Assembly: GCA_010093995.1 (NCBI GenBank)
Contig: ML992503.1
Coordinates: forward strand, 1,813,356 to 1,861,207
DNA from: Elsinoe ampelina
Taxonomy: Eukaryota
Reading direction: 5' to 3'
Length of the DNA stretch: 47,852 nucleotides
Below the pieces are notes generated by a model. The model saw only the letters and a program-made list of their open reading frames with translations, was not told where the DNA came from and ran no database searches. The position numbers were made by a program, and so were the translations under genes. Shown piece after piece: positions 38,001-41,000 of this stretch; position 1 is the stretch's first letter; the number at the start of each line of letters is the position of its first letter.

Positions 38001-41000
38001 TATTAAAGCCTTATATTAAAGCTATATATATCGTAATATAGAGAATGCCTATCTAACCGAATAGTCTATTAGTAGTAGAACTAATTACTATTAAGCCCTA
38101 GGTATAAGCGCCGCGTAGGATATCTAGGTATATTACGTAAGCGGGACTAGCCGCTACTAAGTACTACTCTAATACTGTACTCTTATAATTGCCTTCTCCT
38201 CTAGGGGAGCTATCCTTAGCTCTATACTAGTATAGTAAATATATAATTTAAGGCGAAGGTAATATAGGCCTTAAGGCATTTTCGGTTATATATCGCATAT
38301 AAATCGTATACTACTTAGTTATTATAGTCCTAATAGTCTAGGTCGAAGGAGGCGTTTATTTAGTCGCTATAGTATTAAAGCCGATTAGTAGTAATAATAT
38401 TACTTTTCCTTAAAATTCCTAGTAGTACTAGGAGAGACGCGCGCTCTACGCTAGTAGCTATAATAAAGATATAGTATACTAGAGGTTAGAATATATAACC
38501 TCGCTATTGCCCCTTACTTTCTCCCCTCTATATACCTAAATATATTTTTATTTTCTTAGACTTCTACTTTAATATAGCGCTCCTCGCTTAACTCGTACTT
38601 ACTTTATAATATTCGCTTCTTCGCGTAATACGTATAGCTCTAGCTCTCGTTAGCCCCCTATAACTCTCTTAAGTATACCTTGTATAACTCTTACTAGCGT
38701 AGGTTCTACGCTAGCTTCCCTCTACTATAGGTATACTATAGGCGTTAATAAGGGTAAGTATAGTCTATTTAAATACGATTCGTAACTAACGCGTAGTAGG
38801 ATTTAACTATATTAGTAGGAATTTTAGTACCCTTACTAAGAAGAAGTATACTTACTATATTAAGGGTTACTATACCTACGAGCTACTTCTACCTTACCTA
38901 CGTAGTAACTATATAGCTACGTATAACATATTTAACTCGCTTATAGAGATCAATAATAACGATAATAATATACCTATAGACTATGTAACTCTTAATAAGA
39001 CTCTTAAGGACTTTAAGGATTTATTAAAGGTATACTATACTAATAAGAATAAGGTTACTAGCGAGGCGTCTATACCTCGTACTAGCCGCGTAGGTACTAT
39101 ATATAGCGCGCTTAACTAGGAGAAGGTAGTAGAGCTTTAGAAGATTAGGAGGACCTTAACTACCTTAGTAGTAGTTAGATAGGAGGTATATTAGCTACGT
39201 CGCTTATACGTCTATCTCGCGACTAATATACTTAGATAGTACATAATACTAGCGGGTTAACTAAGCACTCTAATAGGATTATAGCTAGAGGAGAGTTTTT
39301 TAAGGATAAGAATAAGATTAAGAAGAATAATAAGAATAGAGAGTAGTAGTAGTATTATATACGAGCTAGGTACGTATCTCTAGCGCTATGTCTATAAGGC
39401 CTTATATATAGTATAAAAGTTTATAGCGTTTAGGATAATACCTATATAGCTAGTATAAGCGTAGCGCTTTATTAAAATATATTACTCTAGATAAGAAGTC
39501 TATCCTTTAACTAATTTATGTACTTATATAATCTAACTACTTATATACTCTATAATCTACGCCTTCTATAACCCTTCTTAGGTACTTTTAGCTACGACTT
39601 ATATATAGTAATTAGCTCTCTTATATTTACGTAATTCTCCTTAGGTTCCTAGCTATTAAACTTAATAGGCTAGTCTTTCTACTTTACTAAGTAGAATACC
39701 TTACTCTTCGTAGCTCTTCTACCTAGGATCTTCTCTACTATCTACTTATCTACTTCATCTACGAGAGGTATACTTTCTTCTAGCTCTTTACTAGCTCTAC
39801 CTATTTATAGCTTAAGAAGAGATATATAAAAGACATTATAGATGTAATACTAACTCGGTAAGGCTAGGTAGTACGCCTACGATCCGATTATATTAAGTAT
39901 ACGAAATAGGCTAAGGAATTGTAGTCCTATCTTCTTCTTTAGTATAGGTAGCTATAAGTTCTTAGCTAAGAGTAGTACTAAGTTACCTACGCTATATACC
40001 TTTAGTATATACTTCTTATTATAGTACTTAGCCTAGTAGGTAGAAGCCTCTTTCTATTACTCTACTAGCTTTACGTATGTATCTTATAAGCGTTATACTA
40101 ACTCTAGTACTACTAGTACTCTTCCCTCTAAAGTCTCGTCCTAAGACTTAATAGCTATTACCTCTAACTCTAGGTAGTAGCTATACATTATCTAGAAGAG
40201 GCTTATACGTAGTATAGTATAAACGCTATTATTACTTATAAACTCCGCTTAAGATAGACATTCGGCCTAGTCGTTTTATAATTCTATATAATAGTACCTT
40301 AGGTACTATTCTAACGTCTAGTTCTATCGCTTAGTCTAACTGTCTATCTATAGGTAAAAGGCTATACTAAGCCTACGTTTTATATACGTTTCGTAATAGA
40401 ATTTACTCTAGAACTAGCTAGTAAAGACTAATCCTTAATTACTTACTATTCCCCTAGGAACACTATAGTAGTAAATTACGTAGTTACGTAGAATCTTTAT
40501 AAGCTCTATAGATGTACACTTCTTAGTAGTAGGAACGTATAGTAACATCTTAGTATATCGGTCTATAATTACTAGTACCGTATTATAGACGCTATTGCCT
40601 TACTTACTCGGTAGTAGGTTAGTAATAAAATCTATTATAATTTCTTACTATAGGTAATCTAGTATCGGTAGTATACGTAGCTCGCTATAGAGGTAGTAGT
40701 AGCGCGCCTTATACTTCTAGCAAACTTAGTATAACTATATATAGTTATTAATATCTTTTCTTATAGTTAGCTAGAAGTATTTCTATAATAGGAGCTTAAG
40801 CGTCTTGTCCTTACTAAAGTAACTAGCCTATTCGCCGTTATAGTATATACGTAGTACCTACGCCTTAAGTACGCTATTATTCGGAATAACTAGTAACTCT
40901 TTATAGAAGAGAAGATTATCTTATATATTCTATAGCGCTCTACTCTTATCTCTACTACTTCCCGCTTATAAACGTAGCTTTATAATCTTAGGGTCTTATC

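Follow-up and report, generated by a model that had tools for sequence, protein, structure and literature searches.

The stretch of DNA considered here, referred to as the window, comprises 47,852 nucleotides of contig ML992503.1 of Elsinoe ampelina (assembly GCA_010093995.1). It harbors chromovirus D, a long terminal repeat (LTR) retrotransposon whose gag-pol genes run on the minus strand. The subject of this report is the locus 38609-39346 (+), which lies within the element, antisense to these genes, in the interval separating pol from the 3′ LTR. This segment is probably the remnant of an accessory gene of the element that was destroyed by repeat-induced point mutation (RIP), and an intact homologue of its product is recorded from Elsinoe fawcettii.

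The locus can be read as three putative exons separated by two short putative introns, all on the plus strand. Exon 1 (38609-38753) opens at 38609 with ATA, perhaps a RIPped ATG, and contains a TAG at 38651-38653. It is followed by intron 1 (38754-38796, 43 nt), with a GTAAGT donor, a CTAAC branch site at 38786-38790 and a TAG acceptor, and then by exon 2 (38797-39185), in which TAG stops are found at 39117, 39138 and 39180. Intron 2 (39186-39235, 50 nt) has a GTATAT donor, a CTAAT branch site and a TAG acceptor, and exon 3 (39236-39346) begins with IVHNTSG, continues into a tail rich in K, N, D and E, and ends with TAG at 39344-39346. Joined together, the exons give 645 nt in a single frame with a terminal TAG, an ATA instead of ATG at the start, and four internal TAG codons (15, 156, 163 and 177). 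Both the ATA at 38609 and the GTATAT donor of intron 2 are the expected products of RIP, from ATG and GTATGT, respectively.

The initial annotation described the product of this locus as a protein with six cysteines. The sole Cys codon of the spliced model is a TGT at codon 25, and the positions of the six-Cys pattern are occupied by Tyr codons (TAY, at 39, 42, 53, 66, 69 and 76) that were read as RIP products of TGY. The model holds 19 Tyr in all, and those at 40, 68, 73, 74, 82, 87 and 91 are left out of the pattern. The putative acidic tail similarly reads KDKNKIKKNNKNRE in the window copy and is acidic only when de-RIPped. The window copy of the antisense gene is a RIP-inactivated pseudogene.

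The evidence that carries the identification of this locus as a gene comes from a protein search in which exon 2, its three stops replaced by X, was compared by phmmer with 1,835,955,588 representative proteins at E values up to 0.001. Exactly one match was returned, KAF4546987.1 (locus tag D9617_77g092410; here called P0001), an intact hypothetical protein of 213 aa encoded on an 18-kb contig of E. fawcettii. Query residues 10-128 align with residues 47-169 of P0001 at 38% identity (E 6.6e-09) and, in the opposite direction, tblastn of P0001 against the window recovers 38820-39176 at 37% identity (E 6e-14, within the window), with KKKCTYCVRLKHKC opposite KKKYTYYIKGYYTY. The alignment of exon 2 with P0001 keeps to one frame, its gaps total 4 residues and consist of whole codons, and the blocks NFS, KKK-TY, TNKNK-T-EAS and EKV-EL-KIRR are retained. 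The TAG at 39138 stands opposite the Gln of ELQKIRR in P0001, a CAG-to-TAG change of the kind that RIP gives. A RIP-aware score for exon 2 reached 386, against 160.8 +/- 9.6 for shuffled sequences, and none of 50 shuffles attained it. When P0001 itself was used as the query, two word-based protein searches (117-373 aa and 30-116 aa) found nothing besides P0001, and none of its 595 and 69 pattern matches in metagenome and viral contigs, respectively, was confirmed.

P0001 has cysteines at 31, 34, 44, 57, 60 and 67, forming CxxC-x9-C-x12-CxxC-x6-C. In the full spliced model all six are opposite Tyr codons of the window, as a RIP change from TGY to TAY predicts. The exon 1 codons at 38723-38725 and 38732-38734 face Cys31 and Cys34 (YYRY against CERC), and the exon 2 codons at 38808, 38847, 38856 and 38877 face Cys44, Cys57, Cys60 and Cys67. 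The six-Cys claim holds for the homologue, with close to the predicted spacing, whereas the window holds Tyr codons and one Cys. The last 41 residues of P0001 include 18 D/E and no K/R, ending in DDDDDDDE, and helices are predicted upstream of them by an AlphaFold2 model of P0001 alone. The acidic tail that had been assigned to the window gene is present in P0001, and the helical region is predicted there at low confidence. With a mean pLDDT (predicted local distance difference test) of 43.5, the model is unusable for fold comparison. De-RIP reasoning on one dead copy had in this way foretold the motif of a living homologue.

The same homologue bears on the introns. As RIP produces transitions and not insertions or deletions, a change of frame between homologous parts points to an intron or, less likely, to an indel. 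Pieces of P0001 were scored against the three plus-strand frames with reversions allowed in TA context only, and compared with 200 shuffles; this restricted score was adopted because reversal of any T from C or A from G proved too permissive for short exons. For residues 21-46 the exon 1 frame gives the highest score (51 versus 33 and 35), a value attained by 4 of the 200 shuffles, and their match stops at nt 38755, next to where the donor starts (38754). Residues 171-192 score best in the exon 3 frame (46 versus 24 and 25), which no shuffle attained. At the proposed introns, where splice signals and frame change are found together, the highest-scoring frame moves from phase 2 to phase 0 and then back to 2. 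The two-intron model is borne out in this respect, and both introns appear, from this comparison, to be needed to follow P0001; support for intron 2 comes solely from the frame change needed to reach the P0001 C-terminus. A tandem TAG at 38797-38799 provides an alternative acceptor for intron 1, giving an intron of 46 nt in the same phase, a 9-residue loop like that of P0001, and a Gly facing Gly. We think that this acceptor at 38799, 3 nt further on, is the likelier end of intron 1, in that it fits the homologue better.

Element D, within which this gene resides, is a chromovirus, that is, a chromodomain Ty3/gypsy element, on the minus strand, given that minus-strand pol domains including a chromodomain lie between two LTRs. 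The pol region (39598-42447 (-)) was read through many stops, with X at each, and yields in order along one minus-strand frame series the Pfam domains RVT_1 (41965-42447 (-), E 2.9e-19), RT_RNaseH_2 (41470-41745 (-), E 3.8e-13), Integrase_H2C2 (40702-40872 (-), E 1.1e-05), SH3_Tf2-1 (39811-39987 (-), E 1.7e-07) and, at the C-terminus, Chromo (39598-39741 (-), E 1.8e-05), the coordinates being computed from the residue ranges of the matches. The chromodomain is borderline in this RIPped copy, at 25.0 bits against a cut-off of 25.1. The 3′ LTR (38001-38248 (-)) is 80% identical to the 5′ LTR (44401-44654 (-)), its direct repeat at a spacing of 6400; the two begin in register at 38001 and 44401, align well over approximately 38001-38190, differ mostly by transitions, and flank the coding region. 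That gag-pol of a chromovirus runs opposite to the candidate gene, as had been proposed, is confirmed by these domains and by the LTR pair.

Most of the window is AT-rich, with a GC content of 0.19-0.38, and GC-normal islands occur at 1-1000 and about 19000-25000. RIP is generally recognized by a TpA/ApT index above 0.89 and a (CpA+TpG)/(ApC+GpT) index below 1.03. Element D as a whole gives 2.21 and 0.08, and the segment 38609-39346 gives 2.20 and 0.07, so that both lie within the RIP range, versus 0.57 and 1.28 in the neighboring GC-normal island. The pol-3′ LTR spacer (38249-39597), which contains the antisense gene, is unusually long at about 1.35 kb. No Pfam family is matched by the three plus-strand frames of 38249-39600, with X at stops, at E values up to 1, or by the three minus-strand frames of 38001-40400 at E values up to 0.1 besides the SH3_Tf2-1 and Chromo domains of pol. 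No copy of the spacer occurs elsewhere in the window, except for an inverted self-match at 38672-39036 (61% identity) that probably arises from the base composition of TA-rich RIPped DNA.

We consider it probable that 38609-39346 (+) represents a RIP-destroyed accessory gene of the chromovirus, antisense to gag-pol and situated between pol and the 3′ LTR. That a protein-coding gene lies antisense to gag-pol inside an LTR-bounded element, as the initial annotation held, is upheld by the homology of this strand to P0001. With pol ending at 39598 (-) and the LTR at 38001-38248, the gene takes the position of the aORF-3R class of antisense open reading frames (aORFs) defined in PMC7264820. A working copy would encode a protein of about 210 aa with an N-terminal CxxC-x9-C-x12-CxxC-x6-C cluster, a predicted helical region and a strongly acidic tail. 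Transcription would start from its own promoter in or beside the 3′ LTR and proceed towards pol. The two short introns could be retained since, lying antisense to the genomic RNA, they would never be spliced from the template for reverse transcription. The protein may bind zinc via its Cys cluster, pair through its helices, and act as a nuclear regulator or adaptor of the element's own expression. RIP would have altered the start codon, every one of the six Cys codons, and another four codons that now read TAG, at least one of which was Gln.

Antisense genes of comparable layout are found in related elements. P0002 stands closest to element D in its pol (E 3.3e-139; next best 2.5e-74), and with this sequence 39 metagenome loci were fetched; no match to P0002 was found in viral contigs. 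In 9 of the 39, those modelled by pattern search, an antisense gene lies downstream of pol that encodes CxxC-x6-C...CxxC-x6-C and a helical stretch, together with an acidic tail where the open reading frame (ORF) of the copy extends that far. In many of the loci this metagenome-type gene consists of two conserved antisense frames, of which the first ends ...C[EK]RCADFGILCIPQ and the second opens HATSCAPC.KAKAAC, followed by a helical LR.D[VI].RI[AV]VALE.L and then the acidic tail. The only locus of the nine in which both LTRs were found is L007 (LTRs at about 154-628 and 7215-7645), where the antisense gene (6133-7107) is flanked by pol and the 3′ LTR. Between sublineages, the ratio of nonsynonymous to synonymous substitution (dN/dS) was 0.04-0.21 in eight of nine comparisons, the ninth being saturated, and the metagenome-type genes are under purifying selection. 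These genes show that antisense coding genes of such a layout are maintained by selection at the pol-3′ LTR position in related chromoviruses. In L002, the second metagenome ORF (4659-5135, minus strand) also resembles bZIP_1 weakly, at E 0.018 and a score of 15.6 bits where the cut-off is 27.6, over a basic stretch and then a helical stretch, which is a lead only.

The two metagenome frames lie 45-50 nt apart, and the lengths of the spacers between them differ by non-multiples of three. In three of the nine loci this spacer is a clean 49-nt GT-AG intron, whose removal joins the frames into CxxC-x6-C-x10-CxxC-x6-C. A further locus, L028, is AT-rich (31% GC), with LTRs at 4286-4611 and 11775-12113 and a pol-LTR spacer of 1.8 kb. 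Within that spacer, on the minus strand, 10649-10897 is an uninterrupted antisense ORF encoding CxxC-x12-C-x12-CxxC-x6-C, an unspliced Cys pattern that occurs at 4 places in the 584,922 codons scanned across all loci. The L028 ORF has no significant sequence similarity to P0001. We regard the metagenome-type and L028 genes as analogous, and possibly homologous, to the window gene. Just one further unspliced six-Cys pattern occurs among the 39 loci, CEECSLILNLVHCGRAFLVVCVACSLQLPHMC, at L031:2953, L032:1367 and L037:5685, in a more distant element group. In L031 and L037 it precedes the pol match by about 300 nt on the same strand, and in L032 it lies on the strand opposite that match.

The literal observation can be set against chance rates, which were counted on both strands of the RIPped DNA of the window (78,306 nt). 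The intron 1 type of signal, GTAAGT..CTAAC..YAG, is uncommon, with 5 occurrences. The looser intron 2 type, GTRNNT..CTRAY..YAG, occurs 203 times (about 2.6 per kb), including 5 on the plus and 6 on the minus strand of the spacer alone. Tyr accounts for 8.9% of codons, and clusters of the flexible Tyr type begin at 24 positions among 78,298 codons. Of the stop-to-stop frames counted in the RIPped stretches, the open frame at 38790-39119 (109 aa) ranks fourth in length, one of the three longer ones (118 aa) spans an N gap, and second-order Markov simulations attained 109 aa in 1% of runs. Stop density was dropped as a coding test because the true pol frames, with 3-9 stops per 100 codons, carry as many as some wrong frames. 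Taken without outside evidence the observation is weak, and it is the intact homologue P0001 that vindicates it.

Several results weigh against the accessory-gene reading. Although both proposed introns have their signals in place, those of intron 2 taken alone are at chance level, in view of the 203 looser patterns in RIPped DNA and the 11 in the spacer. The score of the whole N-terminus (P0001 residues 1-46) was attained by 29 of 200 shuffles and that of the whole acidic tail (171-213) by 19 of 200, neither of which is significant, and the support for exon 1 is modest. P0001, the sole intact homologue, is seen as a protein record alone, apart from its genomic context. Among the nine modelled metagenome copies none is wholly intact, and in six (L004, L005, L007, L013, L020 and L022) the spacer between the frames opens with AT and not GT. 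These six read ATAAGT or ATGAGT, a GTRAGT donor with A at +1 (at about 5130-5180 in L004), and both flanking frames show purifying selection between sublineages; they could be inactive copies with a donor mutation in common, or non-canonical splicing could be at work. The metagenome-type intron falls between Cys3 and Cys4, versus between Cys2 and Cys3 for intron 1 of the window. Direct comparisons of the metagenome-type gene with P0001 are also negative, with best tblastn values of about 0.7 (L007) and about 1.3-1.7 (L002, L003 and L009), an hhalign E value of 0.13 over 19 columns, and a profile of the spliced metagenome models whose score for P0001 was attained by 1474 of the 1487 scored shuffles (2000 made). 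With regard to function, the sole family reported by hmmscan for P0001 at E values up to 10 is Imm5_like (E 0.013), with Zn_clus (PF00172) absent, and no match to P0001 was found among PDB sequences.

The most serious alternative is that P0001 is itself a spurious antisense gene model laid over a non-coding retrotransposon spacer, so that its match to the window reflects shared transposon DNA and no protein. P0001 is indeed an unnamed hypothetical protein, alone in its cluster, encoded on an 18-kb contig and without a Pfam family; long ORFs arise by chance in GC-rich DNA; and no other relative was found, the exhaustive search having been run with RIPped exon 2 only and P0001 having been searched by word index only. 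The pattern of conservation speaks otherwise, in that protein-like blocks (NFS, KKKCTYC, TNKNKITGEAS, EKVKELQKIRR) are set between diverged stretches with whole-codon gaps, six regularly spaced cysteines are kept, and analogous antisense genes in related elements show the low dN/dS values given above. We judge this alternative to be improbable. That the segment is a host gene, or a fragment of one, captured by or inserted into one copy of the element, and not a standing part of the family, is also very unlikely. LTR elements are known from parts of PMC7264820 to capture host sequence, a single copy of element D was examined, and the other retroelement sequences in the window have no P0001 match. 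The place, strand and layout of the gene are, however, those of the antisense genes of the metagenome chromoviruses and L028, and the segment has been RIPped to the same degree as the element around it. Finally, the notion that splice motifs, Tyr pattern and open frame are nothing but chance in TA-rich RIPped DNA draws on the frequency of loose introns and Tyr clusters and on the uninformative stop density of pol, but is scarcely credible when the single database match has the predicted Cys pattern and acidic tail and no shuffle reaches the RIP-aware score of exon 2.

On the accessory-gene reading, the nature of the protein has to be considered further. The initial annotation saw in it the layout of a transcription factor, and the Cys cluster, the predicted helices and the acidic tail all occur in P0001, whereas the match to the Zn_clus family fails. 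Zn(II)2Cys6 clusters follow the spacing CX2CX6CX5-12CX2CX6-8C. The spacings of P0001 (2, 9, 12, 2, 6) and of the window model (2, 10 or 9, 12, 2, 6) fall outside this rule, and those of the metagenome-type models (2, 6, 10, 2, 6) fit it once the spacer is removed. Like Zn(II)2Cys6 activators, P0001 carries six cysteines towards its N-terminus, ahead of predicted helices and an acidic tail, and the second half of its cluster, CxxC-x6-C, fits. Unlike them, it has a first loop of 9 residues (9-10 in the window), and its loops do not have the typical basic residues. As Zn_clus is unmatched and the first loop is too long, the transcription-factor reading is a guess from layout. A read-through of L004 across its spacer likewise gave no Zn_clus match. 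The Atlas neighbors of P0001 are unnamed Ascomycota clusters (0.91 for the whole protein, 0.89 for residues 24-80), with a DUF3716-bearing cluster at 0.77, all of them leads only, and no Zn_clus cluster is among them.

LTR retrotransposons are usually held to need gag and pol only, and the present locus documents a second such protein for the fungal chromoviruses. Antisense genes of reverse-transcribing elements are familiar from the retroviruses, where HBZ of human T-cell leukemia virus type 1 (HTLV-1) is a spliced gene whose product is a bZIP factor. Among fungal elements, an antisense gene of Boty-like retrotransposons, brtn, was reportedly described by Zhao et al. in 2011 (Virology 417:248). 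It is presented as such for Botrytis cinerea and Sclerotinia in passages of PMC8365987, PMC7264820, PMC4227169 and PMC5987419. As in element D, brtn is an extra gene antisense to gag-pol in a fungal chromodomain Ty3/gypsy element, and a passage of PMC7264820 draws it with those aORFs that lie 3′ of pol, ahead of the 3′ LTR. No match to BRTN was obtained in the search with exon 2, a RIPped query, or in the two word-based searches with P0001, which need shared 5-residue words and could let distant relatives escape. Within the limits of those searches, the window gene thus looks like a member of another family.

Plants offer further examples of antisense ORFs between pol and the 3′ LTR, including gene23 of Grande, RIRE2 and PvRetro13 (in parts of PMC7264820) and the TRP28 ORFs of Retand (in parts of PMC11963269). 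These plant aORFs share with the window gene their position, their orientation and a proposed nuclear or DNA-binding regulatory role, and differ in belonging mostly to non-chromovirus lineages and to other protein families (TRP28, SMC-like). The antisense gene of Grande is stated in passages of PMC7264820 and PMC11963269 to have its own promoter and a protein that localizes to the nucleus. The word intron is absent from the main text of both papers. In the literature searched, which left outside the Botrytis supplements that draw the brtn ORF, there is no report of an intron-bearing antisense gene with a Cys cluster in a fungal retrotransposon. Antisense genes between pol and the 3′ LTR are thus already in print, as brtn and the plant aORFs, and the window gene adds a form with a Cys cluster and putative introns. 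Like HBZ (PMC10186651), it is an antisense gene of a reverse-transcribing element. HBZ is driven from the 3′ LTR side and encodes a regulator with a dimerizing helix, which for the window gene is a proposal. In contrast, HBZ is a vertebrate retroviral gene from a different protein family, and experiments have established its expression and function, whereas the window gene is known from sequence alone.

If the protein does regulate transcription, simple fungal retrotransposons could carry their own regulators, as complex retroviruses do. A broader and speculative extension, which we rate as doubtful, is that a clade of fungal chromoviruses spread across several hosts (the window genome, Elsinoe, the AT-rich host of L028 and the metagenome hosts) has long carried its own intron-bearing antisense zinc-cluster regulator. 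With its dimerizing helix and acidic activation tail, this would be made from the 3′ LTR side, would switch promoters of the element or of the host, and would correspond, in a fungal retrotransposon, to the antisense genes and transactivators that complex retroviruses carry. Only one relative was found in the protein searches run, and routine repeat masking may hide such genes.

The remainder of the window contains other retroelement sequence. A second pair of direct repeats (27116-27273 and 47692-47852, 87% identity, 20.6 kb apart) encloses element D together with further retroelement sequence, which suggests nested insertions; the window terminates within the second copy. Another LTR pair, at 2696-3422 and 9237-9950 (735 nt, 79% identity), bounds sequence that is about 59% identical to element D pol (3932-5196 versus 39573-40848; 5352-6436 versus 41314-42413). 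The pol-LTR spacer of this element is only about 500 bp and has no P0001 match. Runs of N at about 16100-16340 and 25640-26150, either assembly gaps or masked sequence, give rise to artificial long ORFs in all six frames. The GC-normal islands carry intact-looking plus-strand host ORFs at 20-721, 20446-21300 and 23456-24709, which by eye are, respectively, signal-peptidase-like, bZIP-like with a basic region and leucine heptads, and a Ser/Pro-rich protein of 417 aa.

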